Numbered from the stretch's first letter, positions 1 through 63,706 are shown. The stretch: DNA of 64,000 nucleotides from Eubacteriales bacterium (GCA_045592105.1 JAZNUB010000045.1:260-64259); one strand, 5' to 3'. Made by a program: numbers and translations. Notes: generated by a model not told the origin, from the letters alone.

Positions 1-31
1 TGTATCAAATCTAATGATTTGATACAGCCCC
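1..31. repeat. Copy (probably cut by the window edge) of a conserved palindromic unit TGTATCAAATC-N4-GATTTGATACAG flanked by CCC
   Basis: The window opens with tgtatcaaatc taat gatttgatacag cccc. The same arms recur at 14986-15021 and 57809-57842. Confidence 0.7.
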
Positions 32-93
32 AAATTTCACTGTTATCTTCGATAACAACTTCACTTTTGCGAAGCAAAAACTTCACTAAAACA

Positions 94-849: not shown

Positions 850-917
850 TAGATGTTTTTCCTTTTGAATATTAGCTTTGCCGACACAACGCAAGCTTTA
901 TTGTGCTTTTGCGTTGC

Positions 918-3686: not shown

Positions 3687-3699
3687 TCAAAGCACCTCC

Positions 3700-4368: not shown

Positions 4369-4371
4369 AGC

Positions 4372-7300
4372 TTAAACGCTCCTTTGCTTAAGTGCAACGT
4401 TGCCGTTACCCATAACGTCCTCTATCGCGGAAACAAGCGCGGCTGTGGGGTTTACGGAAACCCCTCTGGGCGATAACAGCTTCTTCGTTTCCTCGTAGTA
4501 TAAGCACACCTTTCCAAAGCCCTCGTGCTTTTGCATTATCTGTAACGCTTTGTTTAGGTGCTTTTCGTTCTCGGCGGTTATTTTTATATACAACGCGGGC
4601 GTTGCCGCGTTGGGTACAACCGCCTTTTCAAGTATTATCTTAAGCTCGTCCTCTGTTTCATCATCGTACGCCTCACGCACGCTAAGGCGCCCCTGTATGC
4701 AAAGCACCGCGCCCTCCGTAAGCAGCTCACCGTATGCACTTAGCTGTTTGGGGAACACAACAAGCTCCGTTTCCCCGATAGTGTCCTCAAGCGTGCAAAA
4801 CGCCATAACGCCGCCGTTCTTCGTGGGCTTTTGCGTTTTATCCCGTATCAATCCCAACAGCGTAAGCATCTGCCCTTCTTTAACGCCGCCCTCGCGGTAT
4901 TTATCGTATATCGCGCCTATATCCAAGCAGTTAAGAGCGCGCGCCGCTTCTGCATATTCGGTTAGCGGATGCCCCGTAAGATACAGCCCTGTAAGCTGTT
5001 TTTCGTCCTCAAGCATCGCACTGCGGCTGTATTCGGGCACCTTAGGATACTCAAGGCTAACGGCACTTTCCTCAACGCCAATGGATTCAAACAGCCCTAT
5101 TTGCCCTGCTGCCGCAGATGCGCGAATTTGATGCAGCTTATCGCCGGACGTGTCCAAAGCCGCAACAAGCACACTGCGCGGCTTGCCAAAGCAATCCATA
5201 GCACCGCTTCTTATAAGAGCTTCCGTCATCCTTGCGCTACCGCCTGAATGGCCGCGTAGCAGATAATCCTCAAAATCCTTGTATTCTCCGCTTGTTTCGC
5301 GCTTGCTTACTATGCGCCTTGCATAGCTTTCACCAACGTTTTTTATAGCCGCAAGCCCAAAGCGTATACCGCCCTCCTCGGTTGTAAAGCCAACACCGCT
5401 TTTGTTTATACTCGGCGACAATATGTCAAAGCCCATACGCTGGCATTCGCCGCGATAAAGGCGCATCTTGGCGTTGTCGCCCATAACGGAATTTAAAAGC
5501 GATGCCATATACTCCTTGGGATAGTGGCATTTAAGATAAGCCGTGCGGTACGCAAGCACCGCGTATGCCGCCGCGTGGCTTTTGTTAAATGCGTAGCTTG
5601 CAAAGCCTGCAATACTGTCAAACAGCGCTTCCGCGCCCTTCTCTGTCATCCCGCGCGCCGCTGCGCCCGCCACAAAGCCTGCACGCTCCTTTTGCATCTC
5701 CTCAGGCTTCTTTTTCGCCATAGCGCGGCGCACAAGGTCCGCCCTGCCGTAGCTGTAGCCCGCAACGCTAACGCAAATACGCATAACCTGCTCCTGATAT
5801 ATCATACAGCCGTAAGTGGAGCGCAGCACGCTTTCAAGCGTTGGCGATAGGTATTTTATCTTAGCCGGATCGCGCCTGTTGGCAAGATAATCGTCTATAA
5901 ACTTTGCAGGTCCCGGACGATAAAGCGATATAGCCGTTGTTATATCGTCCAAGCAGTTGGGGCATAGCCGCGTAAGCAGGTTACGCATCCCCTCGCTTTC
6001 AAGCTGAAACAGCCCGATAGCGTTCCCCTCGCAAAGCATTTTGTAGGTAGCGGCATCGTCAAAGGGAATAGTGTCCTCACTAAACAGCGGCACCTTTTCC
6101 TTAACCGCCTCGCACGCTTTTTCTATAACGGTTAAAAACCTAAGCCCCAAAAAGTCTATCTTCAAAAGCCCCAAAGCGGCAACCGTGTTCATAGGGAACT
6201 GCGTTACCACCGTGCCCGTAGACGTGGAAAGCGGCAAATAATCCGTTAAAGGCTTGTCCGTAACAACAACGCCGCTTGCGTGCTGGCTTGTGTTACGCGG
6301 CCTGCCCTCAAGGGCGCGCGCGTAGTCTATAAGCGTTTTAACTGTACTGTCTATTTTATACCTTTCGGCAAGCTCTTTGCTTTCTTTAAGTGCATCCTCC
6401 ACGCTTATGCCGATAACGCGGGGGATAAGCTTTGCAACCTCGTCCACCTGCGCGTATGGCATACCAAGCACACGCCCAACGTCACGCACGGCTTGTCTGC
6501 ACGCAAGCGTACCAAAGTTTATTATCTGTGCAACGTGGTCTGCACCGTATTTTTGAGATACATATTCTATAACCTCGCCACGGCGTTCATCACAAAAGTC
6601 GATATCAAAATCGGGCATAGAAACGCGCTCCGGATTAAGAAAACGCTCAAAAAGCAGGTCGTTTTTAATCGGGTCAACACCCGTTATGCCTAAAAAGTAC
6701 GCCGCAAGCGAGCTAACGCCGCTACCTCTGCCGGGGCCAACGGGTATTCTTTTGCTTTTTGCAAAATTTACAAAATCCCAAACGATAAGATAATAGTCCA
6801 CAAAGCCCATATTTTCTATTATGGAAAGCTCTGTGCTAAGACGTTCCTTGTATTCTTCCAGCCTGTCCGTTATAATGCCCTTTTTCCGCATCGCGGCAAA
6901 GCCATCCTCGCACAGCTTTTTAAGATACGCCGCCGCGGTATACGGCGCGGGCGTTGCGTATATGGGCAAATGCATCGTGCCAAACTCAAACTCAACGTTG
7001 CATTTGTCCGCTATTATCTGCGTGTTTTCAACAGCCTGCGGCAGGTCGGAAAACAAAGCCTTCATCTGCTGCTCCGTTTTAAGGTAAAACTCCTCCGTGG
7101 AGAAGCCAACGTCGCTATCCGCAACGGTTTTGCCCATCTGTATAAGCATAAGCAGGCGTTGGGTTTGTGCATCCTGTTTCTTGATATAATGCACGTCGTT
7201 TGTGGCAACAAGCGGCACGGAATGCTTCTTTGCCAGCGCAACAAGCGCGCTGTTTACCTTTGCTTGCTCCTCCAGCCCGTGCCTTTGCAGCTCTATATAA

Positions 7301-14975: not shown

Positions 14976-14985
14976 AAAAGAAAAA

Positions 14986-15021
14986 GGGTCTGTATCAAAT
15001 CGTTCGATTTGATACAGACCC
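14986..15021. terminator. Bidirectional hairpin between convergent rhaD and aroF, and a member of the TGTATCAAATC palindromic repeat family
   Basis: gggtctgtatcaaatc gttc gatttgatacagaccc forms a 16-bp perfect stem. An A-run upstream gives CTTTTTCTTTTTT on the minus strand after the aro operon. Confidence 0.8.
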
Positions 15022-15028
15022 TATCTTA

Positions 15029-23446: not shown

Positions 23447-24205
23447 ATGAAAAAATACTTGAATAGGCTTTTGGCTGTTATGCTTGTTGCCGTTTTGGTA
23501 TGCGCTTGCATCCCTGCCGTAACGGCTTCCGCGGCAGAGGCGGAGTTTGATGTGGTTGTTACCCCTGATAAAAACAGGGTAACCTATGGCGATACCGTTA
23601 CCTTTACCGTGGCGATTGAAAACATTACTGCTTCGGGCGGTTTGCTTTCGGTGGACGTGCCTTTCCGTTTTGACCCTAACGTGTTTGAGTTCGTTGGCGA
23701 AACAGCGGTTTTCCCCACCGTTTGGCAAAACCCGCAGGATTTTAGCTACAAAACCGATAAGAACGGCCTTTTGTGGCTTAGAGTGTTGGAGGATGGGGAT
23801 GAGTTTTCCTCCACCGCAGGCTGTACCGAAAACAGGGCTATATGCTTTAGCGTTACGCTAAAGGTTAAGGACGGCGCAAAGCTTGCCGGCACTACCGTTA
23901 CCACTAATGGGGACGGGGCTTTTGAAGCGGCTTGCGGCACCTGTGCGGATGGGCAGTGTACCGTTGCGTTGGGCGCAGGTAAAAGCGGCACCGTTACGAT
24001 AGTTGAGTTTATTATGGGTGACGTTAATGGTGACGGCGTGGCTGACAATACCGATGCCGCTGTGATTTTGCGTTATGACGCGGGCGTTATTAACCTTACG
24101 GACGGGCAGCTTAAGGCAGGCGACGTTAACGGTGACGGCGGTGTTGATAATCTTGACGCGGCAAAAATATTGCAGTATGATGCAGGCATTATAGATAGCC
24201 TTTAA
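23447..24205 (+). CDS. Secreted protein with a cohesin-like module and a C-terminal dockerin (two DVNGDG Ca-binding repeats)
   Basis: A signal peptide is present (MKKYLNRLLAVMLVAVLVCACIPAVTASA). A roughly 160-aa beta-sandwich-like region has a cohesin-like pattern (GDTVTFTVAIENITASGGLLSVDVPFRFDPNVFEFVGE). The dockerin reads GDVNGDGVADNTDAAVILRYDAG ... GDVNGDGGVDNLDAAKILQYDAG. Confidence 0.75.
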   Translation: MKKYLNRLLAVMLVAVLVCACIPAVTASAAEAEFDVVVTPDKNRVTYGDTVTFTVAIENITASGGLLSVDVPFRFDPNVFEFVGETAVFPTVWQNPQDFSYKTDKNGLLWLRVLEDGDEFSSTAGCTENRAICFSVTLKVKDGAKLAGTTVTTNGDGAFEAACGTCADGQCTVALGAGKSGTVTIVEFIMGDVNGDGVADNTDAAVILRYDAGVINLTDGQLKAGDVNGDGGVDNLDAAKILQYDAGIIDSL

Positions 24206-24208
24206 ACA
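24026..24208 (+). repeat. Dockerin-coding module, copy A of a near-identical 183-nt direct repeat
   Basis: It aligns with 25693-25875 with 8 mismatches by my eye count, including the stop codon and 3 nt beyond it. Confidence 0.9.
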
Positions 24209-24227
24209 AAATTAAATATAATCTGAG

Positions 24228-24260
24228 ATCGGGCAGCAAAGGCTTGCCCGATTTTTTTAT
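24228..24260 (+). terminator. Intrinsic terminator after the cohesin/dockerin gene
   Basis: atcgggcag caaagg cttgcccgat followed by ttttttt. Confidence 0.85.
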
Positions 24261-24367
24261 TGGGGCGATTTGCCGTTTTGCAAGGCGATTTCAGACATTT
24301 AATTATAGAGAGCAAGAAAAAACTTTGACGGGGAATTGTTAACGTTTTTTAAAAAAATGAAAAAATG

Positions 24368-24396
24368 TTGACTTTTTGGGCAAAAGCTTGTATTAT
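24368..24396 (+). promoter_or_regulatory. SigA-type promoter about 300 nt upstream of the second dockerin gene
   Basis: TTGACT (24368-24373), a 17-nt spacer, then TATTAT (24391-24396). Confidence 0.55.
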
Positions 24397-24666
24397 TATA
24401 GAGTAAAGGAAATAGAAGAACAAGTAAACGCGCTTAGCTCTCTTGCTGCAGTTGAAGAGCTCCTGTGTATGTCTATATGCTTTGACTACCTTACAGGTAA
24501 CTATAACCACGAGTATTGGTCTGTTGAGAACAAATCCGTTGCAAGTATTTCGCTTTCGGGTGGTATTTTAAAGTCATTTTTTCTGAAAATGGAGTCGAAT
24601 ATGAGGTGGTACAAATGGGTATTGTTTTGTATTGTATTTTTTTTGGGGTTGGATTATATAATTTAA
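24376..24666 (+). pseudogene. Doubtful 96-aa ORF, possibly a remnant of a Big_2-like domain gene inside a long 5' leader
   Basis: It has a TTG start inside the promoter spacer and no RBS. It contains WSVENKSVASISLSGG, which resembles WKISDSNVASISLSGG of the downstream gene, followed by a hydrophobic tail. Confidence 0.3.
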
Positions 24667-24690
24667 AAATTTACTTTTAGGAGGAACATC

Positions 24691-25872
24691 GTGATGAGTG
24701 TATTCAGAAAAACCATTGTTTTGCTTCTTTCGCTTGTTTTTATTGCATCAACTTTTTGCATAAGCGGTAATGCGGTAGAGCCAACAGAACCTATTTTTAC
24801 ATACGATAATAGCATTGTAGCAATGGTTACGGTAGATACGGAGAGAAGCTTTGTGCCTGACGACTTTCCTGAAATTGATTGCAACGCGGTATATGTGGTA
24901 AGCAAGCTAAAAACTGACACATGGTACGATTACGAGCTTGTATTAACTCTTGATGGTAATGTGAACAATGCGTTGTCTGCTGTTTGCGCTAATTCTATGG
25001 TTAGTTTAGCAAAACGCAATTCTTATGCGCTTGAAGCTTCTGTTGTTGAGTTAAGCAAGAGTGAACTCGTTTTGCCTATCGGAAAAAGCGCTGAGTTGGA
25101 AATAGCTAAGTTTATTGACGTTGTAGCTCGCAATATTGTTGGCGTTGCGTTTGAAATAGACAGCGAGGTTATTGCTGATGATAGCATACAAAGCGGATGC
25201 TTTGATGACTATGGTATAAAAAACTTTTGGTCTGCCGCTAATTCAAGAATTGATGATAGTTTTGAATGTTTAAAAGACAGCAATAATTCTTTTTCTTGGG
25301 CAGATGAGGGACAAGTTAGCACCAACGGCTTGTATTTTGGTATATTTAATAATGAATTGGGCGACGTGTACAACATCGTTGATGTAATTGAGTGCGTAAA
25401 CAAGCTTGCAAGCTTGAGAGGCATAAACTCTGTGGTGCTTTGCGATGATACATTTCCCAGTGGTAATCCATGGGAGGAAGTATGGAAAATTAGTGACAGT
25501 AATGTTGCCTCAATAAGCCTATCCGGCGGAACATCTGCGGATATAAATCAGGGTATAGCAACCGATATAGGGCAAACCGCAACTGTTACAGGGCTTTCTG
25601 CGGGCAGCACCACCTTAAGCTTTGAAAGAAGCGGTTTTGGCGCTTACGGATGTGCTATTTGTTCAATTATCGTGGTTTCACCTGCCGATGTAAATGGTGA
25701 CGGCGTGGCTGACAATACCGATGCCGCTGTGATTTTGCGTTATGACGCGGGCGCTATCGACCTTACGGACGTGCAGCTTAAGGCAGGCGACGTTAACGGT
25801 GACGGCGAGGTTGATAATCTTGATGCGGCAAAAATATTGCAGTACGATGCAGGCATTATAGATAGCCTTTAA
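24691..25872 (+). CDS. Secreted dockerin-containing protein of unknown function (Big_2-like segment plus C-terminal dockerin)
   Basis: An AGGAGG RBS precedes a GTG/ATG start at 24691/24694, followed by a signal peptide. The body looks AT-rich by eye. The C-terminal dockerin is nearly identical to that of the upstream gene. Confidence 0.8.
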   Translation: MMSVFRKTIVLLLSLVFIASTFCISGNAVEPTEPIFTYDNSIVAMVTVDTERSFVPDDFPEIDCNAVYVVSKLKTDTWYDYELVLTLDGNVNNALSAVCANSMVSLAKRNSYALEASVVELSKSELVLPIGKSAELEIAKFIDVVARNIVGVAFEIDSEVIADDSIQSGCFDDYGIKNFWSAANSRIDDSFECLKDSNNSFSWADEGQVSTNGLYFGIFNNELGDVYNIVDVIECVNKLASLRGINSVVLCDDTFPSGNPWEEVWKISDSNVASISLSGGTSADINQGIATDIGQTATVTGLSAGSTTLSFERSGFGAYGCAICSIIVVSPADVNGDGVADNTDAAVILRYDAGAIDLTDVQLKAGDVNGDGEVDNLDAAKILQYDAGIIDSL

Positions 25873-43877: not shown

Positions 43878-44336
43878 TTATTCCGCTGAGGCTTCTTTTT
43901 GCTCTGCCTCTTTATTCTTCTTTCTGTCCTTATATTTAGAAAACAGCTCCGGTATTTTGTCGATTAAAACATTTATGCCCTCAATCGCCTGAGTAACAGG
44001 GTTATCGTCCTGCCCTGCGGGTACGGGATTGTTAAGGTCTACAACCTGCACGTCTGTACCCTTAACGATTATAAAGCCAAGGGGCGTAACGGAAACGCCT
44101 GCGCCGTTGCCGCCAACAAAGTTTTTCTTTTCGGGCGTGGGCACTTTTTTAGAATCATAGTCCGCACCGCCTGCGGCAAAGCCAACGCTTACCTTGGAGT
44201 AGGGAAGCACCACAACCTCATCGTTAAGCCTTATCGGCTCGCCTATAACGGTGTTGGAATCCGCTACGGAGCGAATTTTGCTAAGAGCCGTATCAATGAT
44301 TTGGTTAAGAGAGGATTCGTTCATCTTCTGTATCAC
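43878..44336 (-). CDS. ytfJ: Sporulation protein YtfJ (GerW family)
   Basis: 152 aa with the pattern TVIGEPIRL ... VLPYSKVSVGFAAGG typical of YtfJ/GerW. Confidence 0.85.
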   Translation of the reverse strand: MIQKMNESSLNQIIDTALSKIRSVADSNTVIGEPIRLNDEVVVLPYSKVSVGFAAGGADYDSKKVPTPEKKNFVGGNGAGVSVTPLGFIIVKGTDVQVVDLNNPVPAGQDDNPVTQAIEGINVLIDKIPELFSKYKDRKKNKEAEQKEASAE

Positions 44337-53559: not shown

Positions 53560-54289
53560 AAGGGCAGACGTTGTGCTGTGCACATCGGGCTTGGCTGAAA
53601 GCCGCACAAAGGCGCACGCGCTTATAAAAGAGGGCGTTGCGTTTGCGGACGGTAAGCTTATAGAAAAGCCTTCACAACTAATAGATACAAGCGCAAAGCT
53701 AACGCTTGCTTTGGATACCCCCGTGGACGTATCCCGCGCGGGGCAAAAGCTACGCGCCGCGCTGGAGACGTTTGGCACAGATGTTAGCGGCAAGATTTTT
53801 GCAGATATCGGCGCATCAACGGGCGGCTTTACGCAGTGCCTTTTGGATAACGGCGCTTTGCACGTGTTTGCGATAGACGTTGGGCGCGACCAGCTTCACA
53901 AAAGCCTTAGGGAAGACAGCCGCGTTACCGTAATGGAGGGTGTGAACGCACGCACGCTTACAAGAGAGGCGCTTGGCAAGGATATAGATGGTGCGGTGAT
54001 GGACGTTTCTTTTATATCGCAAACGCTTATATATCCCGCATTGGCGGGGCTTCTTAAAACGGGCGCACCGCTTATAACGCTTGTTAAGCCGCAGTTTGAG
54101 GTTGGGCGTGAAAATATAGGCAAAAACGGCATAGTAAAGGACAAAAAGGGTACCTTGCAACAGCTTGTTATGCTTAAAATACGGCTTGCGGCAGAGGAAA
54201 ACGGCTTTGAGCTTTTAAAAACGATAACCTCACCTATAAAGGGCAGTAAGGGTAATACGGAATATCTGGCGCTTTTAAAAAAGCAGTAA
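53549..54289 (+). CDS. tlyA: TlyA family rRNA 2'-O-methyltransferase
   Basis: An S4-like N-terminus is followed by an FtsJ-type SAM motif (DIGASTGGFTQ). Confidence 0.9.
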   Translation: MELKRADVVLCTSGLAESRTKAHALIKEGVAFADGKLIEKPSQLIDTSAKLTLALDTPVDVSRAGQKLRAALETFGTDVSGKIFADIGASTGGFTQCLLDNGALHVFAIDVGRDQLHKSLREDSRVTVMEGVNARTLTREALGKDIDGAVMDVSFISQTLIYPALAGLLKTGAPLITLVKPQFEVGRENIGKNGIVKDKKGTLQQLVMLKIRLAAEENGFELLKTITSPIKGSKGNTEYLALLKKQ

Positions 54290-54305
54290 ATTAGGGGTTG
54301 ATATA

Positions 54306-55178
54306 TTGAACGTACAAAGGGTAGCTTTAATACCCAACATAACCAAACCCGGTGCGCTACGCTGTGCTATCCGTGCGGCAAGCGTGCTTCGTGAGGTGGG
54401 GATAGAACCGCTGATAGACGAGGGCAAGCAGCCTACCTTTGCCGCATTGGGCGAGAGCATAAGCTGTATGCCGTTGGACGAGCTGTATAAGGTAAGCGAT
54501 ATAGTGATAGTGTTTGGCGGCGACGGCACGGTGCTTGGCGCGGCAAAGAAGGCGGCGGAAACGGGCGTGCCTATCCTTGGCGTAAACTTTGGGCACGTAG
54601 GCTATATTACGGAGCTTGAGGAAAGCGAGGTAGATATGCTTCGCCGTTTAAGCACGGGGGATTATTATATAGACGAGCGTATGATGCTGGACATAAGCGT
54701 TGGTAAAAACGGCAGAAGGCTGTTTTTCGCCCGCGCTTTTAACGAGGCGGCAGTAACGCGCGGCATAGTGTCGCGCCTTGCGGATTTCACCGTTAGCTGT
54801 AACGGCAGCTTGGTAAACCGCTACCGTGCGGATGGGCTTATCGTTGCAACGCCAACAGGCTCCACAGCGTATTCAATGGCGGCGGGCGGCCCTGTAATAG
54901 ACCCATCGCTGGAGGTAATAAGCGTAACGCCGGTATGCTCCCATTCCTTGGATTCTGCGCGCACGCTTGTTTTCGGCCCGCAATCCGTGATAAAAATAAC
55001 CGTTCCCTCCGCTAAATATGCAGAATCAATGGTAACGGTGGACGGCAGAACTTTTTTCAGAATAAACGATGGCGATTTGGCTATAACGCTAACTCGCTCT
55101 GAAAGCAAAATAAAGCTTATAAGGTTTAAAAACAGCTCCTTCGGCAACACTCTTTATCAAAAGTTTGGCACCGGTTGA
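54306..55178 (+). CDS. nadK: NAD kinase
   Basis: 290 aa with the GGDGT motif (VFGGDGTVLG). It uses a TTG start. Confidence 0.92.
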   Translation: MNVQRVALIPNITKPGALRCAIRAASVLREVGIEPLIDEGKQPTFAALGESISCMPLDELYKVSDIVIVFGGDGTVLGAAKKAAETGVPILGVNFGHVGYITELEESEVDMLRRLSTGDYYIDERMMLDISVGKNGRRLFFARAFNEAAVTRGIVSRLADFTVSCNGSLVNRYRADGLIVATPTGSTAYSMAAGGPVIDPSLEVISVTPVCSHSLDSARTLVFGPQSVIKITVPSAKYAESMVTVDGRTFFRINDGDLAITLTRSESKIKLIRFKNSSFGNTLYQKFGTG

Positions 55179-55199
55179 GAGCAAAAAAAGGAGTATAAA

Positions 55200-55655
55200 A
55201 TGAAGAAATCTCAAAGACACGCCGCTATACTTGACCTTATACAAAGGAAAAGCATACGCACGCAGGAAGAGCTTTTGGAGCATCTAAAAAAGATGGGATT
55301 CGATACAACGCAGGCAACCGTTTCCCGCGATATAAGAGATTTAAAGATAGTAAAAGCATCGGACGGTAACGGCGGCTACAAGTATTCCGCGGCACTTTCT
55401 ATGGGGGATGGGGATTTTGCCTCCAAGCTGAAAACCATATTTACAGAGGCGGTTTACAGGGTGGACAGTGCCTGCAATATGGTGGTGCTTAAAACCTATG
55501 CGGGCATGGGTAGCGCGGCAGGTGCGGCTGTGGACTCTATGCAGATGGACGGCGTTGTTGGCACACTTGCTGGGGACGACACTATGTTTATAGTAGCGCG
55601 CTCGGTTGAGGCGGCAACGGAGATAAGCAAGCAGTTATCACAGCTTTTAAAGTAA
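55200..55655 (+). CDS. argR: Arginine repressor
   Basis: 151 aa with a winged-helix N-terminus (QATVSRDIRDL) and a C-terminal oligomerisation domain (GTLAGDDT). Confidence 0.94.
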   Translation: MKKSQRHAAILDLIQRKSIRTQEELLEHLKKMGFDTTQATVSRDIRDLKIVKASDGNGGYKYSAALSMGDGDFASKLKTIFTEAVYRVDSACNMVVLKTYAGMGSAAGAAVDSMQMDGVVGTLAGDDTMFIVARSVEAATEISKQLSQLLK

Positions 55656-55670
55656 GAGAGGGAAAGAAGT

Positions 55671-57347
55671 ATGCTGTCGTCACTACATATAGAAAACGTG
55701 GCGCTGATAAAAGAGAATACCTTGCTGTTTGGCGGCGGATTTACCGTGCTAACGGGTGAAACGGGCGCAGGCAAAAGCATTATATTAGACGCGCTTTCCT
55801 TGCTTTGCGGCGGCAGAAGCGATAAGGAGCTTATCCGCACAGGTGAAAGCTACGCTTTTGTAGAGGGCTGCTTTGACGGGCTGGACGATGAAATTGTGGA
55901 AAAGCTTTCTATGCTTGGCGTTACTCTTGACGAGGACGGCGTGCTGTTTTTAAGCCGCCGTGTATCGGCAGACGGTAGAAGCGTTGCACGCATAGGGGAT
56001 AGGCAGGTTCCGTCCTCACGCCTTCGCGGTGTGGCGGAGCTGCTTTTGAACATCCACGGTCAGCAGGATACGCTGCTGCTGGCAGACAAGGCGCGCCATC
56101 TGCCGCTTATAGACAGCTATGCCAAAACAGAGCAGCTGTTATCGGAATACAGCGGGCATTACGCGCGCTATACCGAGCTTGGAAAAGAGATAGAGGCGCA
56201 AAAGGCAAAGGCAGCGGATAGCGCCTTTCGCAAAGAGATGATAGAGTATAAGCTTCAGTCGCTTAAAAAGGCAAAGCTTCGCCCCGATGAAGAGGAGGAG
56301 CTTTTGCAAAGCAGGAAGCGTTTGCGTGCGGCAGAGCGCATCTGTGCAGGCGCAAGCGGCGCGTACAGCCTGCTTTACGAGGAGGACGGCTCGGCAGGGG
56401 AGCGCGTTTACGATGCAATCTCCGCGCTTTCGCCCCTGAAGGATGCATTGCCCGAAGCGGCACAGCTTTTGGAAAGGCTTGAGAGCATTAAATGTGAGAT
56501 AGACGATATTGCCGATACCTTAAAGGAGTTTGCTCAAACGGATGCAAACACCGCGGCTATAGAGCTTGACGAGGTTGAAACAAGGCTTGAGCTTATAGCG
56601 GAGCTAAAGCGCCGTTTTGCAACGGATTATGCGGGCTTGCTTTCCGCGCGGGACGGTTTGCTTGCGGAGCTTGAGCAGATAGAAGGCAGTACCGAGTATA
56701 TAGAGGAGCTTACGGAGGAAAGAAAGCAGTGCGAGCAGGAGATGCTTGCTGTTGGCAAGCGGCTTTCTGCCCAAAGGCGCAGTGCGGCGTTGGGGCTTGA
56801 GGAAAGAGTTAAGGAGTGCTTGGCACAGCTTGATATGCCCTCGGTAGGCTTTAAGGTTATGTTCACCGCAATACCGCCGCGGGCGGACGGTTGTGACGAG
56901 GCGGAGCTGCTTATTGCACCCAACGCGGGTGAGGAGCCGAAGCCGCTATCAAAAATCGCATCGGGCGGTGAGCTGGCGCGTATTATGTTGGCGTTTAAAA
57001 GCGCGCTGGCGGAAACAGAAAAAACACCTGTTATGGTGTTTGACGAGATAGATACGGGTATATCTGGCAAGACCGCGCAGAAAACGGGGCTTGCGCTTAA
57101 ACGCCTTTCCGCGCGTGAGGGTACGCAGGTGCTTTGCGTAACCCACTCTGCACAGATAGCGGCACTTGCCGATACGCATTTGCTTGTTAGCAAGCGTGAG
57201 GACGCGGGGCGTACAAAAAGCCTTGTGCGCGCGCTTGACAGCGACGGACGTGTTGAGGAGATAGCGCGTATTATAGGCGGCATAAACGTTGGCGAAGCAA
57301 CGCTTAACGCCGCAAGAGAGCTTATTAGTGAGGCGGCTATGCTATGA
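55671..57347 (+). CDS. recN: DNA repair protein RecN
   Basis: 558 aa with a Walker A motif (GETGAGKSI), a long coiled coil and an SMC-type signature (ASGGELAR). Confidence 0.95.
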   Translation: MLSSLHIENVALIKENTLLFGGGFTVLTGETGAGKSIILDALSLLCGGRSDKELIRTGESYAFVEGCFDGLDDEIVEKLSMLGVTLDEDGVLFLSRRVSADGRSVARIGDRQVPSSRLRGVAELLLNIHGQQDTLLLADKARHLPLIDSYAKTEQLLSEYSGHYARYTELGKEIEAQKAKAADSAFRKEMIEYKLQSLKKAKLRPDEEEELLQSRKRLRAAERICAGASGAYSLLYEEDGSAGERVYDAISALSPLKDALPEAAQLLERLESIKCEIDDIADTLKEFAQTDANTAAIELDEVETRLELIAELKRRFATDYAGLLSARDGLLAELEQIEGSTEYIEELTEERKQCEQEMLAVGKRLSAQRRSAALGLEERVKECLAQLDMPSVGFKVMFTAIPPRADGCDEAELLIAPNAGEEPKPLSKIASGGELARIMLAFKSALAETEKTPVMVFDEIDTGISGKTAQKTGLALKRLSAREGTQVLCVTHSAQIAALADTHLLVSKREDAGRTKSLVRALDSDGRVEEIARIIGGINVGEATLNAARELISEAAML

Positions 57348-57802
57348 CGCTACGCAAGAAAAAAACAATAAAGATTTGCCTTGCCGTATTAGGCTTAGCT
57401 GTTTGGTTGCGGTTTATATTTAGAAATTCGCTTAAAAACAGCGTACAGTCTGCCAACCAAAGCGAGGCGGCAGAAGGCTTTTTGCGCCGCATATTAAGCT
57501 CGTTAGGCTTTAGCGGCAACGCGGAGGCAGTTGCAGAAATAGCCGTAAGAAAGGCGGCGCATATATTTGAGTTTTTCGTTTTGTTTTTGCTGTTGGCGGC
57601 GCTTTTTGCCCTGCTTATCAAAAGCATAAACGTAACGGTGATATGCTCTTCGGCTTTGGCGTTCGGTTTCGCTTGCATAGACGAGTGCTTGCAGATTATT
57701 TCGCACCGCGGCGCATCAGTACGGGACGTGCTTATTGATTCGGTAGGTATAGCCATAGGCGCATTGCTTTATGTTTTCGTGCGTAAAAAACGAAATAGAT
57801 AG
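57344..57802 (+). CDS. VanZ family membrane protein
   Basis: 152 aa with 4 TM helices and the motif KAAHIFEFFVL. It overlaps recN by 4 nt. Confidence 0.85.
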   Translation: MTLRKKKTIKICLAVLGLAVWLRFIFRNSLKNSVQSANQSEAAEGFLRRILSSLGFSGNAEAVAEIAVRKAAHIFEFFVLFLLLAALFALLIKSINVTVICSSALAFGFACIDECLQIISHRGASVRDVLIDSVGIAIGALLYVFVRKKRNR

Positions 57803-57808
57803 AATTAT

Positions 57809-57842
57809 GGGCTGTATCAAATCATTCGATTTGATACAGCCC
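57809..57842. repeat. Third copy of the TGTATCAAATC palindromic unit (15-bp stem), placed after vanZ
   Basis: gggctgtatcaaatc attc gatttgatacagccc. There is no adjacent T-run on either strand. Confidence 0.85.
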
Positions 57843-57848
57843 ATTTGC

Positions 57849-58029
57849 TTGGGGATAGGAAAAAATGGTTGGAACGGGCGAACTGAACTGAAGCTGTACC
57901 GATAGTACTGCAAAGTGAAGTTCGTTCGTAGCAAGAAAATATATTATAAAAGGCTAATCGTGGCTTTCGCCACGATTAGCTTCCATTATGTAATATATAT
58001 TTTTCCTTGCGATCCAGCCGGTTTTTACA
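57849..58029. repeat. Left arm (IR-L) of an imperfect inverted repeat bracketing the VTC operon
   Basis: By eye it aligns in three conserved blocks with the reverse complement of 61431-61579. It carries an extra insert of about 33 nt in the loop of the first hairpin. Confidence 0.85.
57946..57980 (-). terminator. Intrinsic terminator of the VTC/DUF4956/beta-helix operon (lies inside IR-L)
   Basis: gctaatcgtggc tttc gccacgattagc forms a 12-bp perfect stem. On the minus strand it is followed by CCTTTTAT. Confidence 0.75.
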
Positions 58030-58041
58030 GCCTCATTTGAT

Positions 58042-59922
58042 TTAATTAGTGCTTCCGCCTTGAAAGATGTTTGCCTTCATAGTAACATTCATAATAAGCT
58101 CGCCGCCTGTGCAGGTGGTGTTTTGTGCAAAACCAAAGCTATCAAGCCCGTTGGCGTTGCCGCCAGCCATAAGCGTGTAGCTACCGCCCTTCTTTATGGA
58201 GGGCGCGGATATTACCGCAGAGGAATACGCCTTATCGGGGCTTATAGCAACTATTGCGTTCCCCTCACTATCGCGGAGCGTAAGCAGGGTGTTTGCTGCT
58301 TGAGTTTTGAACTTGCAAAACGCCGTGCCCTGGCTTGGGGAGTTAGAGAAGCCCTGTGCCATAGGCGCGCTTCCAAGTGCAACAACCACGCCGCCGTTGA
58401 TAACAGAACTGCCTGCACAGTCCAATGAGCTGTCTAAATCAGAGGTGGGGCCGCTTATCACCATAACGCCGCCGCGCACTTGTAGAGTGCCGTTAGAGTC
58501 TATACCGTCACCATCGGCGTCTATGTAAAGCGTACCGCCTGTAAGTGTGAACGCGTTTACCGTCATAATACCATCGTCCGAGGCATTTACGGTAACCGCA
58601 CCGCCGGACATTATCACGCGGGATGCATCCATACCCTCAAAGCTGTTTTCAACTGTTATAGTGCCGCCGCTTACGGCAAGGTCGCTGTTAGCGTGGAAGG
58701 CATCGTTGCCGCTGGATAGCGTTAGCGTGCCGCCCGTTATGCTTATAGTGCCGTTGGAATGTATACAGTCATCTCTGGAGCTTATGTTGTAGCTACCGCC
58801 CGATATAAGGATATCGGATACCGCTTTAAGCCCTTTGTAAGACTCTGCCGTTTCGGTGCCAAGCGCAACGCTTCCGCCACCGCCGCTTTTAACGGTTATG
58901 CTTGCAACGTCGGATTTAAGTACGGTTTCCGCCTGTATACCGTCGTGAACAGCCGTTACGTTGATAGCGCCGCCTTCTATGTAAATGTAGCCCTTGGCGG
59001 CGTTTTCTGTGTTGTCGGAGGTGATACCGTCATCACCGCTGTTGATGGTTATAGCACCGTTTTTGATTTTAACGTAGTCCTTGCCGTTTAGCGCTATGCC
59101 TTTAGAGCTTATGTTAAGCGTACATTCGGAAACAACAACCCTGTCTTTAGAAACAACGCCGTGCTGTTTGTTGCCCTTAACGGTAAGCTTGCCCGTGCCG
59201 TTTATCGTCATATCCGCAAGGCTGAAAATAGCCGCATCCACGTTTGTTGTGCCGCTTGTAAGCGTGTATGAGTTACCGTCGCTTACGTAGTTTTCCGTGC
59301 CGTCGAATGCTGTTATAGTAACCTTGTCAGCCTCTTTAACAACTATAGCGGGGCCGTTTGCGTTGTTTATCACAACGCCCTTTAAAACAAGCTGAACCTT
59401 TTCGGTAGCCGCAACCTCAACAATTATCATGCGGTTTGTAAAAGCACCCTTAAGCTCGTGCGTGCCTGCCGTTGTTATATATATGTCCTCGGCAGGGGCA
59501 GGCGGAACCTCTTCGCTGCTATCCTCTGCCACGGAGCTATCCTCAGGCTCGGAAGGGGTATCTGCCACGGAGCTGTCCTCGGGCTTGGAGGGGATATCTG
59601 CAACGGAGCTGTCTGTATCGGAATAGCTGCTGTCCTCATAGGAAGCATCGCTTTCCTCGCTAATCGCTTCGCTTATATCCTCGCTGCTTTCATCCTCGGA
59701 GGGAAATGCGGAAATAGGGTCCCCCTGTATTACGCTAACCACGTCGCTTTCATCGTAGGAAGCGGCGATATCGCCATCGTCAAACGAAAAGTCCATCCCA
59801 ACGGTAGGCGCGGTGGATACGTCCGTATCAGAAAGCTCGTCTTTAAAGAAGATAAGTATAACGCTAAGAAGTACTGCAACTGCCACAACGCCCGCAATGG
59901 TGATAATTGTGGATTTCCTCAC
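58042..59922 (-). CDS. Membrane-anchored surface protein with an acidic repeat linker and a Cthe_2159-like (PF14262-like) parallel beta-helix carbohydrate/polyanion-binding region
   Basis: 626 aa. The GTG start overlaps the upstream stop (GTGA) and has an AGGAGG RBS. It has an N-terminal TM anchor and SSVAD(I/T)PS(K/E)PED repeats. Periodic segments follow, such as INGTGKLTV, INSGDDGITSD, ITGGTLTLSSGNDAFHA, VSGGTITV and LTGGTLYIDADGDGIDSNG. Confidence 0.75.
   Translation of the reverse strand: MRKSTIITIAGVVAVAVLLSVILIFFKDELSDTDVSTAPTVGMDFSFDDGDIAASYDESDVVSVIQGDPISAFPSEDESSEDISEAISEESDASYEDSSYSDTDSSVADIPSKPEDSSVADTPSEPEDSSVAEDSSEEVPPAPAEDIYITTAGTHELKGAFTNRMIIVEVAATEKVQLVLKGVVINNANGPAIVVKEADKVTITAFDGTENYVSDGNSYTLTSGTTNVDAAIFSLADMTINGTGKLTVKGNKQHGVVSKDRVVVSECTLNISSKGIALNGKDYVKIKNGAITINSGDDGITSDNTENAAKGYIYIEGGAINVTAVHDGIQAETVLKSDVASITVKSGGGGSVALGTETAESYKGLKAVSDILISGGSYNISSRDDCIHSNGTISITGGTLTLSSGNDAFHANSDLAVSGGTITVENSFEGMDASRVIMSGGAVTVNASDDGIMTVNAFTLTGGTLYIDADGDGIDSNGTLQVRGGVMVISGPTSDLDSSLDCAGSSVINGGVVVALGSAPMAQGFSNSPSQGTAFCKFKTQAANTLLTLRDSEGNAIVAISPDKAYSSAVISAPSIKKGGSYTLMAGGNANGLDSFGFAQNTTCTGGELIMNVTMKANIFQGGSTN
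59526..59615 (-). repeat. In-frame 36-nt tandem repeat (about 2.5 copies) in the acidic linker of the beta-helix protein
   Basis: On the plus strand, ctgccacggagctatcctcaggctcggaaggggtat / ctgccacggagctgtcctcgggcttggaggggatat / ctgcaacggagctgtc... Confidence 0.85.
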
Positions 59923-60602
59923 AGCTCGTCTCCTCCTTCAAGTATCTCGGAAATAACTATTTCAAGGTTGCCGTTGCGGCATCTGAGCTCATCAATAAAC
60001 TCCTGCATCTTGCTTTCGTCCTTAAGCTCTATCTTATAAAACAGCTTGTAAAGGCTACCCATATTGGTGGTTTTTGCTTTAACAAGCCAATGCTTTCGCG
60101 TGTATCTTTCAAACAAATCGTCAAACCCGTTTGCAAAACGAAGCGATTCGGGAACGGTTATGTGTAGCTCTACCATAGCTTGATCGCGCATGGGAACAAA
60201 GGTAAGCAAGGTCATAATAGCACCAACCACCAAGGTGAACAGCAACGCCAGCAAGCCGTAGCCCGCGCCGCAAACCAAGCCCGCCGTCATAGCAAGGAAT
60301 ATAGCGGCTATGTCCTTTGCCTTGCCGGGAACGGAACGGAAACGCACAAGCGAAAACGCGCCCGTTATTGCAACGCCAACGCCCACGTTGTCGCTAACCA
60401 TCATAATAACCGTTTGCACTACCATAGGAAGCAGTACAAGCGACATTGCAAAGCTTTTAGAGGTTCTTGAACGTATAGAGGATGCAACCGCCGCAAGGAT
60501 ACCACAGCCAAGCGCAAAAAGCAAACCTATAAAATATACCTTTAATGAAAAGTTGTTAAGCAAATTAGTGCTTTCGATAAATGATTTACTAAGACCTAGC
60601 AT
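59919..60602 (-). CDS. DUF4956-like integral membrane protein (4 TM helices plus a soluble C-terminal domain)
   Basis: 227 aa with a SLVRFRS motif between helices. It overlaps the VTC gene by 14 nt. Confidence 0.75.
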   Translation of the reverse strand: MLGLSKSFIESTNLLNNFSLKVYFIGLLFALGCGILAAVASSIRSRTSKSFAMSLVLLPMVVQTVIMMVSDNVGVGVAITGAFSLVRFRSVPGKAKDIAAIFLAMTAGLVCGAGYGLLALLFTLVVGAIMTLLTFVPMRDQAMVELHITVPESLRFANGFDDLFERYTRKHWLVKAKTTNMGSLYKLFYKIELKDESKMQEFIDELRCRNGNLEIVISEILEGGDEL

Positions 60603-61332
60603 AACTTAGTTCTCCTTTTATATATTGTGTTGGTGTTTTACCCATCAGTATTTGGTACGCCGTGCCGCATTTTGAAAAAGAGGAGGGAAGTATACCGCAT
60701 TCGGTAAGCGCGCTTGACAGCCACAACGGCATTGCCCCATCCGTTTTTATTTCCAAAAGCAGCTCGTTGTCCTTTATTAGCTTTTTGCCGTCATCACCGT
60801 ACTGCAAAAGCAGGTTGTCCCCACGGTATCTAACGTTGCTGTCAAAGGTTATACGCAGGCTTGGTATATCCTCTGCATAGAACGCTTCACGCTCGTAGGC
60901 AATGTATATGGAGGGCGTAGGATGCTCATAAAACTTCATAGAATAGTCTATCTCACGCATTATCTGCGATTCCTCCGGGCGCACCCCGTTTTCCAAATAG
61001 TCCATAGCCTGCTTTAAGGTCATGGCTATACGGCGTTTGTAAACAACGCCCTTGTATTTCTTTTTTAGCTCCAAAAACACCTTTGTGTTTTCCTTGGGAA
61101 CGCCATAGCTTCTAAGGCGTATCTTCTCTTTGTACGATATCGCCTCGATAGAATTGCGTATAAGCCTGTAATTCGGCGTGTCAAGGTAGATACTGCATAT
61201 AGTGCTTTTGCCGTATTCATCAGGCTTAAGGTATTTTCCAACTATCGCAAGAAGTGCTTCTTTCTGCTGTGTTGTTATACGGTATTTCTTTTCTATGCGC
61301 TTAAAAATACAGATATCGCTCAAATAAAGCAC
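60589..61332 (-). CDS. VTC-domain (triphosphate-tunnel, polyphosphate-polymerase-like) protein
   Basis: 247 aa with the motifs RIEKKY, KIRLRSYG, ELKKKYKGVVYKRR, LLEIKTDG and SKCGTAY, as in CYTH/VTC tunnel enzymes. The start is either GTG at 61332 or, more likely given the GGGGGG RBS spacing, TTG at 61323. Confidence 0.78.
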   Translation of the reverse strand: MLYLSDICIFKRIEKKYRITTQQKEALLAIVGKYLKPDEYGKSTICSIYLDTPNYRLIRNSIEAISYKEKIRLRSYGVPKENTKVFLELKKKYKGVVYKRRIAMTLKQAMDYLENGVRPEESQIMREIDYSMKFYEHPTPSIYIAYEREAFYAEDIPSLRITFDSNVRYRGDNLLLQYGDDGKKLIKDNELLLEIKTDGAMPLWLSSALTECGILPSSFSKCGTAYQILMGKTPTQYIKGELSYARS

Positions 61333-61366
61333 CCCCCTATGCCAGTTTTTTTCTTTTAACGGCTAA

Positions 61367-61375
61367 AGTATAACA
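61367..61375 (-). promoter_or_regulatory. Candidate extended -10 promoter element of the VTC operon
   Basis: The minus strand reads TGTTATACT about 35 nt upstream of the start. The -35 is poor (ATGTAC). Confidence 0.35.
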
Positions 61376-61430
61376 GCCAAACATTAATAGTACATAAAGA
61401 AACACAAAAAAAGCGAAAAATTTTTGGGGA

Positions 61431-61579
61431 TGTAAAAAAAGCCCGGACCGCAAGAAAACCAAAAAAACTAATATTGTTGTTAATTGTAGCTAAAGCCATA
61501 ATTAACTCCTTATAATTATATTTTCTTGCTATGAACGAGCTTCAGTTCGTCCATTCCCCCCATTTTTTCCTATCCTCAA
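61431..61579. repeat. Right arm (IR-R) of the inverted repeat bracketing the VTC operon
   Basis: Its reverse complement matches IR-L in three blocks: ttgRggataggaaaaaatgg..cgaactgaa, tcgttcRtagcaagaaaatata(a)ttataa plus a hairpin, and cttgcgRtccRgcc/ggcttttt(tt)aca. Confidence 0.85.
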
Positions 61580-61584
61580 CAAAA

Positions 61585-61617
61585 GTGCTGTAAAAAAACC
61601 GTGTTTTTTTACAGCAC
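61585..61617. terminator. Palindromic terminator after the GT39-like gene
   Basis: gtgctgtaaaaaaa ccgtg tttttttacagcac. On the minus strand it is followed by TTTTG. Confidence 0.8.
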
Positions 61618-61624
61618 CCAAAAA

Positions 61625-63706
61625 TTATGCTATATAGCTAATAGAGTAAAATACAATAGATGAAAAGCTGAACAGCACCGTTGCGGTAACTAAAACCGCT
61701 TTAACGGGCTTAACCCATTTTTGTGTGCCGTTTACCAAAAGCCCCGACCAAACCGCGCCTATAAGCAGCGTTGGTACTATATATCTAAAGTCCATAGTGC
61801 AGGTATGCGGATATTTAAAGCAGAAGGAAACGTAGCTACCAACCAAAAACGCATAGTAAACGACAAGGAAAATGAAGGGTATAATATTTTCCTTGCTTAT
61901 AACGCTGCCCTCGTCGTTCGCCTTTAGGGATGAGCGCACACCCATAAACAAGCCGATAAGGCTTATTGCAATAAGCACCAAGGCGGAGAAAACAAGCACG
62001 TATCCAAAGAAGTTTTGCGTTGTGGAAACGTTTTTTAAGTTAAAGTATTCCCCAAACAAAGAGGTTTTTACAATGTACGGTGCTATGCCGTAATCGTAAA
62101 ACTTTTCCCCTGCAACGGCACCGTTTGCCGCAGTTGCGCCAACGTTGGGGTACATATTAGACAGATGCCACGAGCCAATGCCCGTAAGCCTTTCCAAAAA
62201 CGAGTACTTGCCCAAATACATATCGCTGTTTTGTGAAAGCGAGGGAACGTATCCCAGGGGCATATCGTATTTGATGAAGCAACGGATAGGCCACCAAAGC
62301 CCCAAGGGGAAGCAAATTGCCGCAAACAAAGCGAACTTTTTCCAAAGCGTTTTAAGGTTGTTAATAAAGCCGCCCGTTTTTGTTGTAAACAGCGAGTATA
62401 GGAAAACGTAGCCCGTGCCAAACGCAATCATTGCGCCTGAAAGCTTTGTCATCATCCCAAGCCCTATCGTTAAGGCAAGGATAACTGTGTTTTTAACGCT
62501 ACGCTTTTTGTACCAACGCACCGTGTATAGCACGGAAAGGAACAAAAACAGCGTTGTTAGCGGGTCGTTATTAACGCTGCCCGCGAAGATGTAGAAGCTG
62601 GGGTGGAACGCAAGCACGGCAAACGCCGTATATAGCGCAACGCCTTTAAGCTTAAACTCACAAAACAGCTTGTAGCCAACAGCCATCATAGTTGCGGAGA
62701 ACGCCATTGTAAGATACTGCACGTTTTCATAAGCTTGATAAACGGTTAATCCGCAAGCGGTTTGCGCCCTCATCCACAAAGCCGCCAAAAAGTGATGAAG
62801 CGGGGGGTGGTAGTATTGCGAAAGACCAGCGTTATATACTTTTTCAGTAGGCAACGCCCAGTTGTTGTAGATGTGCATTATATAGGTGTTATGCCTTGGA
62901 TGTTCGCTAAACAGGTTGAAAACGTCGTGCTGGTTTTCGGGCAGGGTGATATCCAAAACGTACAAAAAACGCATAACAAGCCCTAAGCCAAACATCAGCA
63001 TTATAACGGGGGATATAGCCTTCTTCTCCCTCAAGGCGGAAGCAAAGCTAAGCCCAAAGCAAAGAACAAAGCCCGTTACAAGCAGCCTTTCCTTCGGAGC
63101 TTCGATAAGCACAAAACAAAGGTATGCGGCAACGGTGGTAAGCAAAAGCGTGCCTACCGTGCAGGCGGTTTTGATAATGCCGTTTTCGTTTTCGGTGTAT
63201 ATGTGAAGGCAGTACAAAACCAACGCAAAGGTTAACAGCACAACCCCAACGCCAAACACCGCGCAAATACCCAGCGCCGCCGCAAGCGCAAGAATACTTG
63301 CACTTTTATTTTTCTTTATGATAAAAAACGCAAAAAGTGCAAACAACGATAGTGCTATCACCAGCAAAGCTATCCTTTGCGGTGTGCCGCTTAACGCCAT
63401 TATCAGGCGGAAGGCAAGAAACGCCGCACCGCAAGTACCCAATACGTAAACCACGCGTATAACCACGTTGGTTTCTATGGCTTTAATAAACGCGCTTAAA
63501 GCGTACGCCAGCAACGCAAAAAGCACAAACACCGGTATCTGCCATATAAAGCCGTATTCACCGCTTATACCGTCCCTTGCGGAGCGTGCAACCTGATGCA
63601 TTTGTGTAAAAAACAGAGAGAAGGTACACAAAAGCATCGTTGCCACGCAGGGATGCTTTTCTATAAAGCTTTCTAAGCTAAAGCTTTTTACTGCTTTGGT
63701 TATCAT
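61625..63706 (-). CDS. GT-C fold glycosyltransferase (family 39 / ArnT-PMT_2-like), polytopic membrane protein
   Basis: 693 aa with more than 12 hydrophobic helices. It has a YYHPPLHHFL loop motif of the ArnT/PMT_2 type and a long C-terminal membrane region. Confidence 0.75.
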   Translation of the reverse strand: MITKAVKSFSLESFIEKHPCVATMLLCTFSLFFTQMHQVARSARDGISGEYGFIWQIPVFVLFALLAYALSAFIKAIETNVVIRVVYVLGTCGAAFLAFRLIMALSGTPQRIALLVIALSLFALFAFFIIKKNKSASILALAAALGICAVFGVGVVLLTFALVLYCLHIYTENENGIIKTACTVGTLLLTTVAAYLCFVLIEAPKERLLVTGFVLCFGLSFASALREKKAISPVIMLMFGLGLVMRFLYVLDITLPENQHDVFNLFSEHPRHNTYIMHIYNNWALPTEKVYNAGLSQYYHPPLHHFLAALWMRAQTACGLTVYQAYENVQYLTMAFSATMMAVGYKLFCEFKLKGVALYTAFAVLAFHPSFYIFAGSVNNDPLTTLFLFLSVLYTVRWYKKRSVKNTVILALTIGLGMMTKLSGAMIAFGTGYVFLYSLFTTKTGGFINNLKTLWKKFALFAAICFPLGLWWPIRCFIKYDMPLGYVPSLSQNSDMYLGKYSFLERLTGIGSWHLSNMYPNVGATAANGAVAGEKFYDYGIAPYIVKTSLFGEYFNLKNVSTTQNFFGYVLVFSALVLIAISLIGLFMGVRSSLKANDEGSVISKENIIPFIFLVVYYAFLVGSYVSFCFKYPHTCTMDFRYIVPTLLIGAVWSGLLVNGTQKWVKPVKAVLVTATVLFSFSSIVFYSISYIA

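Follow-up and report, generated by a model that had tools for sequence, protein, structure and literature searches.

Inverted copies of a small hairpin-rich repeat at terminator palindromes on either side of a VTC operon in a Eubacteriales genome

The VTC operon and its two flanking arms

The DNA analysed here is a 64,000-nucleotide (64 kb) stretch of a Eubacteriales bacterium (GCA_045592105.1 JAZNUB010000045.1:260-64259), hereafter the window, and our subject is a pair of inverted repeats, the left and right arms, which bracket a VTC operon near one end of it. According to Pfam, nadK (54306-55178), argR (55200-55655), recN (55671-57347) and vanZ (57344-57802) lie on the plus strand. The operon (58042..61323) is carried on the minus strand and consists of VTC (60589-61323), DUF4956 (59919-60602) and Cthe_2159 (58042-59922), with a GT39/PMT_2 gene (61625-63706, also minus) upstream. 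The left arm occupies 57848..58039 on the plus strand (192 nt) and the right arm 61428..61584 on the minus strand (about 157 nt), both counted with a 3' direct repeat. Our results suggest that the arms are probably two independently acquired copies of a small, non-coding, hairpin-rich repeat of the MITE kind (miniature inverted-repeat transposable elements), which was mobilised in trans and targets terminator palindromes.

An initial annotation of this locus had reported homology between 57849-58029 and the reverse complement of 61431-61579, and our alignments bore this out. Blastn matched 57844-58035 (+) to 61425-61585 (-) in two segments, one of 125 nt with 73.6% identity (E 1.6e-12) and one of 44 nt with 86.4% (E 1e-8), and a gapped alignment of 57795-58035 with 61633-61425 gave 64.6% over 246 columns (E 2.5e-18). 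A repeat search of the window also recovered the arms as inverted pairs (I1 and I2), and the longest exact run between the arm cores was 16 nt. The annotation had further placed a strong hairpin against the outer end of each arm. Palindromes do lie there, but the arm homology itself continues outwards into them in the gapped alignment. The left copy is composed of block 1 (GGATAGGAAAAAATGG), hairpin 1, block 2 (TCGTTCRTAGCAAGAAAATATA), a long hairpin with an inner 12-bp stem, block 3 and a T-run; the right copy keeps this order with a hairpin 1 that is about 33 nt shorter. The three blocks, the longer left hairpin and the two 12-bp stems were all as the annotation had described them. Block 1, which begins 8-9 nt past the palindrome foot in both arms, occurred exactly twice in the window, as did the 22-nt block 2 (none in 100 shuffles), and the polarity of the element relative to the upstream gene was identical in the two arms. 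A third arm copy was found in the 64 kb window neither by blastn nor with an nhmmer profile.

The operon is older cargo which lies outside the element. VTC homologues in related contigs (L007, 93%; L005 and L006, 90%; L010, 80%) were all directly downstream of GT39 in the order GT39-VTC-DUF4956-Cthe_2159, and the gene order of the operon was also the same in the conspecific contig L029. L005, the only relative contig among these that reaches vanZ, runs from the operon into a convergent vanZ-recN-argR-nadK and has neither arm. Its two spacers measured 143 and 55 nt versus 293 and 240 nt in the window, and its Cthe_2159-vanZ spacer is a single 55-nt hairpin. When the GT39-VTC spacers were compared, the right arm was absent in L007, L005 and L010, and the relatives held there only an ordinary terminator and a conserved promoter region (GTTAATGTTT...TGnTATAMT). 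These comparisons showed that the operon was in place before the arms inserted. The motif GTTAATGTTT-N5-6-TGnTATAMT was observed upstream of VTC in all relatives (window 61367-61400, minus strand; L005 9940-9975; L007 9920-9950; L010 1140-1175) and is a probable extended -10 promoter with an operator-like box upstream. The extended -10 of the operon (TGTTATACT, 61375-61367) lies outside the arm and is common to the relatives without it. Within the conserved blocks of the element no σ70-type promoter was found, either by scan or by eye.

Terminator palindromes and the insertion sites

Each arm adjoins a terminator palindrome of a family that we designate H0. Three near-identical members of the form GGGnCTGTATCAAATC-N4-GATTTGATACAGnCCC occurred at 1-30, 14985-15022 and 57807-57844, and a variant, GCTGTAAAAAAAC-N3-GTTTTTTTACAGC, at 61585-61617. 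A near-copy of the variant was present after an unrelated gene in an unrelated metagenome-assembled genome (MAG), L002, at 4936-4973. H0-left (57807..57844; ATGGGCTGTATCAAATC attc GATTTGATACAGCCCAT), a perfect palindrome of 17 bp, serves as the vanZ terminator and received the left insertion; it was also present in conspecific strains without the arm. H0-right (61585..61617; GTGCTGTAAAAAAAC acg GTTTTTTTACAGCAC), likewise perfect with 15 bp, terminates GT39 and received the right insertion. In the window 2 of 4 members hold an element copy; the member at 14985..15022 (AGGGTCTGTATCAAATC gttc GATTTGATACAGACCCT) is unoccupied, and the further one stands at 1-30. The exact form TGTATCAAATC-N4-GATTTGATACA was absent from the 23 loci first compared and present in later conspecific contigs, in some of them with one mismatch. 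By their sequence and position at gene ends, the H0 palindromes appear to behave like terminator palindromes of the repetitive extragenic palindromic (REP) type. Both copies sit in the descending (3') half of such a terminator (...GCTGTA..AAA..loop..TTT..TACAGC...), that of vanZ on the plus strand and that of GT39 on the minus strand, and each insertion has about 10-14 nt of target, from TACAG, on both sides.

For the left arm an empty site was recovered. The conspecific contig L029, which was found through a RecN search and is 98.3% and 97.3% identical to the window at the DNA level, matched window 53803-57850 with its positions 1-4046 and window 58026-59574 with its positions 4031-5578, so that 16 nt are shared by both flanks. 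It reads from the vanZ stop through H0 and ...GATCTGATACAGCCCATTTGATTTAATTAGTGCTTCC... straight into the end of Cthe_2159, with the junction ...TACAGCCCATTTG-ATTTAATTAGT-Cthe_2159, whereas the window reads ...TACAGCCCATTTG|CTTGGGGATAGG......GCCGGTTTT TACAGCCTCATTTG|ATTTAATTAGT. By this comparison the left arm is a 191-192-nt insertion within the 3' half and foot of H0-left. It is flanked by a direct repeat of 13/14 nt, TACAGCC(T)CATTTG, whose 5' copy (TACAGCCCATTTG, 57835..57847, plus strand) and 3' copy (TACAGCCTCATTTG, 58026..58039, plus strand) correspond to the single copy of the empty site, L029 4031-4046 aligning to both window flanks. Since L029 carries one repeat copy and the window two, the left direct repeat is a target duplication, and the statement in the initial annotation that there was no target-site duplication was wrong. 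The presence of the left arm varies between strains of the species, one conspecific strain being without it.

At the right arm the palindrome itself appears to have been divided. The 5' extension of H0-right, AATTTTTGGG (61626-61617), has its complement in CCCAAAAATT (61428-61419), which is now found past the inner end of the arm, and this complementarity across the arm points to a longer palindrome split by the right insertion. The simplest reading of the sequence is that the insertion cut a palindrome AATTTTTGGGTGCTGTAAAAAAAC-acg-GTTTTTTTACAGCACCCAAAAATT in two after TACAGCAC. On either side of the arm stand TTTTTTTACAGCAC (61598-61585) and TTTTTTTACATCC (61440-61428), and besides the split palindrome its flanking repeat reads TTTTTTTACA(G/T)C. 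The empty site would be expected to read AATTTTTGGGTGCTGTAAAAAAACacgGTTTTTTTACAGCACCCAAAAATT. Two conspecific contigs, L008 and L009 (VTC 98%), start inside block 3 of the right arm and contain its 3' end.

Conspecific contigs also revealed another occupant of the left site. In L024 (10241-10376) and L025 (9993-10098) a different, unrelated sequence (TGCCTTTTAAGGCGTGGAAATACCCCCCCAGTTCAACTGGGGG...) follows directly after H0-left (...CCCATTTGATTGG|TGCC...), and the contigs end 106-136 nt further on. A different insert at the same spot indicates that the site is an insertion hotspot, and the insert could represent the terminus of some other mobile element, perhaps an autonomous one, which uses it. 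Variation at the left site is independent of that at the right one, sample ERR15157073 having yielded the 3' end of the right arm (L008) together with the other left junction (L025). Breaks in the Logan contigs of conspecific strains fall inside the right arm (L008/L009) and inside H0 (L028), as expected of repeats.

Further copies, folding and coding capacity

Scanning the GTDB species genomes with an exact 19-20-mer pattern gave two true relatives of the element. The copy in L002, a MAG of the Eubacteriales, has the start of an aldo/keto reductase gene on one side and the stop of a GHL10 gene on the other. In L001, a Clostridia MAG from sheep rectum whose RecN is 67% identical to that of the window, the copy covers the vanZ 3' end and runs opposite to the left arm of the window, the last ~22 vanZ codons being read from block 3 and the hairpin; there is no VTC operon at that place. 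Both copies contain block 2, the long hairpin, block 3 and TTTT|TACA, and both are without block 1. The ending ...GSC(N)TTTT|TACA(G/T/A)(C)C is shared by all four copies. The L002 copy looks like a long form that has lost an internal part (TTGTTGA|AGTTCG), its 5' flank still resembling that of the right arm. Core identity was 72.8% between left and right, 85.0% between left and L002, and 82.3% between right and L002. Each arm is therefore nearer to the L002 copy than to the other arm, indicating that neither arose from the other in place.

In public data the family is rare, the known copies being two in the 64 kb, a single one in each of the other two MAGs and part of one in conspecific contigs. 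A profile of the four cores (nhmmer) found no additional copies in the window and all fetched loci, and the left arm had no blastn match in the phage and plasmid collections. A JGI metagenome scan with GTTCRTAGCAAGAAAATAT returned 13 loci, all of them chance 19-mers without hairpin or block 3. A viral scan gave one match, of 25 nt, to block 2 plus upstream bases (GAGGTTCGTTCATAGCAAGAAAATA; nhmmer E 5e-5) in a 278-kb IMG/VR contig (L004, 921-946); it is intergenic, stands beside other short repeats in an unrelated context, has neither hairpin nor block 3, and may be chance or a fragment.

Two observations concern the immediate surroundings of the foreign copies. In L002 (6786-6799) the 15 nt after the element (TTGAGTTTAATTAGT) nearly equal the window flank at 58036-58050 (TTTGATTTAATTAGT). 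TTGAGTTTAATTAGT holds the stop of the unrelated GHL10 gene (...TTN*), and TTTGATTTAATTAGT is the Cthe_2159 end ...STN*, which is already found in L029. This likeness may mean that the element prefers a long, att-like target, or that it took a flank with it. We considered whether the element supplies the ...STN* stop of Cthe_2159, an idea weakened by the empty site of L029, which already ends so, and whether the element derived from a vanZ 3' end, the L001 tail VKIGRNARK... being read from block 3. The latter was rejected, as the same nucleotides are used elsewhere in other frames and after unrelated genes. Just upstream of the L001 element, a GC-rich stretch (ggctacacctcatccaccgactccgtcggtcccccttcccctccaggggaaggctt, 3235-3300) was observed, which presumably resembles a dispersed repeat common in gut Clostridia MAGs.

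The four cores fold alike (z -4.1 to -8.0), with an invariant outer stem GCAAGAAAA/UUUUCUUGC closing an AT-rich internal region. The inner hairpin of 12-14 bp varies in sequence among the copies and retains its pairing. In the left arm it reads GCTAATCGTGGC tttc GCCACGATTAGC (57953..57980; read on the minus strand, it is terminator-like for Cthe_2159) and in the right arm GTTAATTATGGC ttta GCTACAATTAAC (61479..61506). The changes include C-G to T-A at two positions and, in L001, two A-T/T-A swaps and one extra G-C pair. The initial annotation had noted the two compensatory C-G to T-A changes and one G-T wobble, which are correct, and had missed an A.C mismatch of the right copy (GTG to ATG). 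In a MAFFT alignment of the four copies, 93% of the cells paired, versus 38-54% in slid controls. Both-sides changes were found at 3 pairs, and 15 of 500 shuffles did likewise, four sequences being too few for firm covariation; a hand alignment of the 13-bp stem of L001 added further both-sides changes. The view that the hairpin is maintained, proposed earlier from the two arms, is strengthened by two more copies with different but pairing stems. However, template-switch repair inside a DNA palindrome could mimic such compensation, producing matched changes even if no RNA is under selection. In the long form the end of block 1 also pairs with block 3, and the first hairpin is added. The RNA fold of the left arm (57800-58045) reached -105.7 kcal/mol (z -12.1), and that of the right arm had z -5.3.

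Origin of the arms and comparison with known repeats

It is tempting to see in the arms the termini of a cassette, mobile now or in the past, which resembled a composite transposon or the pdif modules of Acinetobacter plasmids and brought the VTC operon to this locus, because the inverted repeats enclose exactly promoter, three genes and terminator. This possibility, raised by the initial annotation, is very improbable in our opinion. Relatives that have no right arm carry the operon beside GT39 and in the same orientation, the armless L005 has it between GT39 and vanZ, and in L029, without the left arm, Cthe_2159 is still next to vanZ. Such cargo at the same locus and orientation without one or both arms (L005, L007 and L010; L029 for the left side) indicates that the operon is not a cassette brought by them. 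Each arm, moreover, has its own direct repeat and its own split palindrome, and diverges more from its partner than from a foreign copy. The annotation had also suggested an invertible segment, in which the arms would be recombination sites that flip the 3.7-kb segment and make the operon phase-variable. The arms are indeed inverted, and their conserved hairpins could be recombinase sites. However, the promoter would move along with the genes, leaving no obvious switch, and the cores are only 73% identical (73-86% overall) with at most 16 nt of exact identity, which is too little for RecA-driven exchange. In addition, the arms are missing in relatives, and a single orientation was seen in all seven contigs that span part of the locus (window, L005, L006, L007, L008, L010 and L029). 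Pfam found no recombinase, invertase, integrase or transposase among the 49 longest of 57 non-overlapping open reading frames (ORFs) of at least 90 aa (94-63706), in agreement with the earlier statement that a recombinase gene is lacking; 8 of the scanned ORFs had no Pfam match, the 8 short ones were left out, and the region is largely housekeeping. With one orientation at the contig level and no recombinase domain in the scanned ORFs, inversion is hardly credible.

Whether the element is primarily a functional module deserves more consideration. It could be a terminator or insulator, a stabiliser of 3' untranslated regions (UTRs) or a small RNA that was spread by recombination and not by dedicated transposition. 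On the minus strand the left copy sets hairpin 2 and a T-rich tail right after the Cthe_2159 stop, which a scan flagged as terminator-like, and on the plus strand each arm ends with the closing stem followed by a U-run. The hairpin has been kept through both-sides changes in four copies, and 3 of the 4 abut the 3' end of a convergent gene, a number too small to show bias. Against this, Rfam 15 gave no match in the window at gathering thresholds (the best permissive hit scored 31.9 bits versus a threshold of 114), the closest relatives manage without the element, and its polymorphism with flanking direct repeats and its unrelated contexts mark insertion, not vertical conservation. We consider such an origin rather unlikely, although the function itself is compatible with insertion and not exclusive of it. 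The paired insulator terminators of the initial annotation are plausible as a consequence of the arms but not as their origin. Even less can be said for a coding role, in which the element would specify a hydrophobic peptide of small size (MA[FL]ATIN...), such as a type I toxin with its start codon sequestered in hairpin 2. The right copy does contain a perfect Shine-Dalgarno sequence (AAGGAG-N6-ATG) and a 47-aa hydrophobic ORF (61356-61499, minus strand), which starts in hairpin 2, runs into the VTC promoter region and is not conserved; the GTG/ATG start and synonymous-looking changes fall within the stem, and three of the four copies share the frame into block 3. However, the ORF measures 26, 28, 47 or 158 aa and ends at different stops, a frameshift precedes block 3 in the left copy, and the frame in which the invariant TTTTTACA is read changes from copy to copy. 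A conceptual-translation probe, whose third alignment row was an artificial stop-codon read-through made for probe use only, had no match among 5.8 billion protein clusters. No conserved ORF was found in the element, which we regard as non-coding, and a peptide origin is extremely doubtful.

Two separate insertions of a MITE-like repeat explain the arms best, and of the proposals in the initial annotation the structured intergenic repeat (MITE/REP-like) is the one that gained support, from copies at unrelated loci in two other Clostridia MAGs and from the polymorphic left arm with its direct repeat. Several points weigh against it. The autonomous partner was not found among the window ORFs by Pfam, and the terminal inverted repeats, A-rich and 16-23 nt long, are weak with about 70% agreement: TTGAGGATAGGAAAAAATG agrees with the reverse-complemented 3' end TTGGGGAT-GTAAAAAAAG at ~16/19 positions in the right copy and ~12/16 in the left, and the motif resembles the H0 halves. 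Only 4-5 copies were found, and neither genome-wide spread nor activity is demonstrated. For the right arm, whose direct repeat is a putative duplication, no empty site was recovered within the species, and the likeness of TTGAGTTTAATTAGT and TTTGATTTAATTAGT blurs the 3' boundary between element and target (TTTAATTAGT being common with L002). Finally, L029 could be a precise deletion between direct repeats instead of a never-occupied site. The outgroups without the arm place the left insertion within this lineage even if this were so.

A recombinase or transposase encoded elsewhere in the genome would recognise the TACAGC half-palindrome, and perhaps also the long hairpin of the element, which would enter with fixed polarity relative to the palindrome and the upstream gene. 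As the terminators of vanZ (+) and GT39 (-) face each other across the operon, the two copies come to lie inverted and bracket it without forming a cassette. Once in place, they may add bidirectional termination or insulation and give Cthe_2159 a structured 3' UTR. The joined ends of the element (..TTTTTACAGCCTC + ATTTGCTTGG..; also ..TACAGCCTC+ATTTGCTTGG..) resemble the empty target (..TACAGCCCATTTGATT..), a likeness that would fit att-type site-specific recombination and a long-stagger transposase equally. Because the ends mimic the target over ~14 nt or more, an att-like mechanism suggests itself, and the element might depend, as a non-autonomous partner, on an undescribed site-specific recombination system whose recognition site is the descending arm of terminator palindromes of the TACAGC type. 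We offer this as a speculation which we ourselves think unlikely to be right. The L024/L025 insert at the same junction could then be the end of the autonomous element of that system, and, if true, this would be an integration system which targets terminator hairpins and has a structured, conserved cofactor of DNA or RNA, and not a decayed insertion sequence (IS).

MITEs are defined by terminal inverted repeats around a core, target duplication and absence of a transposase, and usually have a size below 200-400 bp and a long stem-loop RNA fold (PMC3184786). The element measures 157-192 nt without transposase or conserved ORF, shows a direct repeat against the empty site on the left and forms a long stem-loop; it is similar to bacterial MITEs such as Correia/NEMIS, RUP and bcr1 in being shorter than 200 nt, non-coding and intergenic with a direct repeat and long stem-loop (PMC3184786). 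It also shares with them the presence or absence from strain to strain and the contact with gene 3' ends. However, it differs in its weak terminal inverted repeats, half-palindrome target, very low known copy number and lack of a known parent IS, and its duplication of 13-14 nt is longer than the 2-9 bp of most IS-derived MITEs. SPRITE, a terminator-like repeat near convergent 3' ends, is functionally the closest, as likened by description and not by sequence; the present element instead inserts into an existing terminator palindrome and has 157-192 nt with a three-way structure. The H0 palindromes are REP-like in being short (33-38 nt, four in the window), perfect and repeated at gene ends, whereas the arms, being 157-192 nt long, AT-rich and multi-hairpin, are unlike the imperfect palindromes of ~35-40 nt in REP and bacterial interspersed mosaic elements.

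Insertion beside palindromes is known from IS621, which inserts on the 3' side of REPs (PMC3184786). Among the REP-targeting IS (IS621 and IS1594 of the IS110 family; IS1397), it is IS621 whose position at the 3' side of a palindrome the element shares, but no DEDD recombinase or RAYT accompanies it. Moreover, IS110-type elements leave a core of ~2 bp rather than a 13-nt repeat. With integrative elements of the tyrosine-recombinase type it has in common that its joined ends resemble the target as attP resembles attB and that insertion regenerates the interrupted terminator half; however, it has only ~190 nt and no integrase, and no excised circle or attP was observed. Ends of IS200/IS605 elements (TTAC target) and group II introns did not fit the sequence, and an integron attC was rejected because the hairpin base GTTCGTTCRTAGCAAG...CTTGCGRTCCRGCC and its complement contain no GTTRRRY/RYYYAAC pair. 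No likeness to a named repeat family was found in Rfam or in the phage and plasmid collections; the element is a new, previously unnamed repeat of low copy number, which belongs to the broad class of mobile repeats that are small and structured.

These results remove the tempting reading of the VTC/DUF4956/Cthe_2159 operon as a mobile or phase-variable cassette here, and the exact empty site documents an unnamed, strain-variable repeat family of uncultured gut or rumen Clostridia which inserts into palindromic terminators. Elements of this kind break short-read assemblies, as in the Logan contigs, and can add terminators or insulators around operons and rewrite gene 3' ends, as in the vanZ of L001. 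The apparent half-palindrome specificity gives a modest lead towards a hairpin-targeting recombinase.

Two further features of the window were observed. Cthe_2159 contains tandem 36-nt repeats at 59525-59615 (86% identical), which encode an acidic Ser/Pro-rich linker (..DSSVADIPSKPEDSSVADTPSEPEDSSVAEDSSEE..) past the N-terminal membrane anchor. Proteins with cohesin and dockerin domains are encoded at 23447-25872 and a ytfJ-like sporulation gene at 43878-44336. The host probably belongs to the Clostridia, forms spores and bears cellulosomes.

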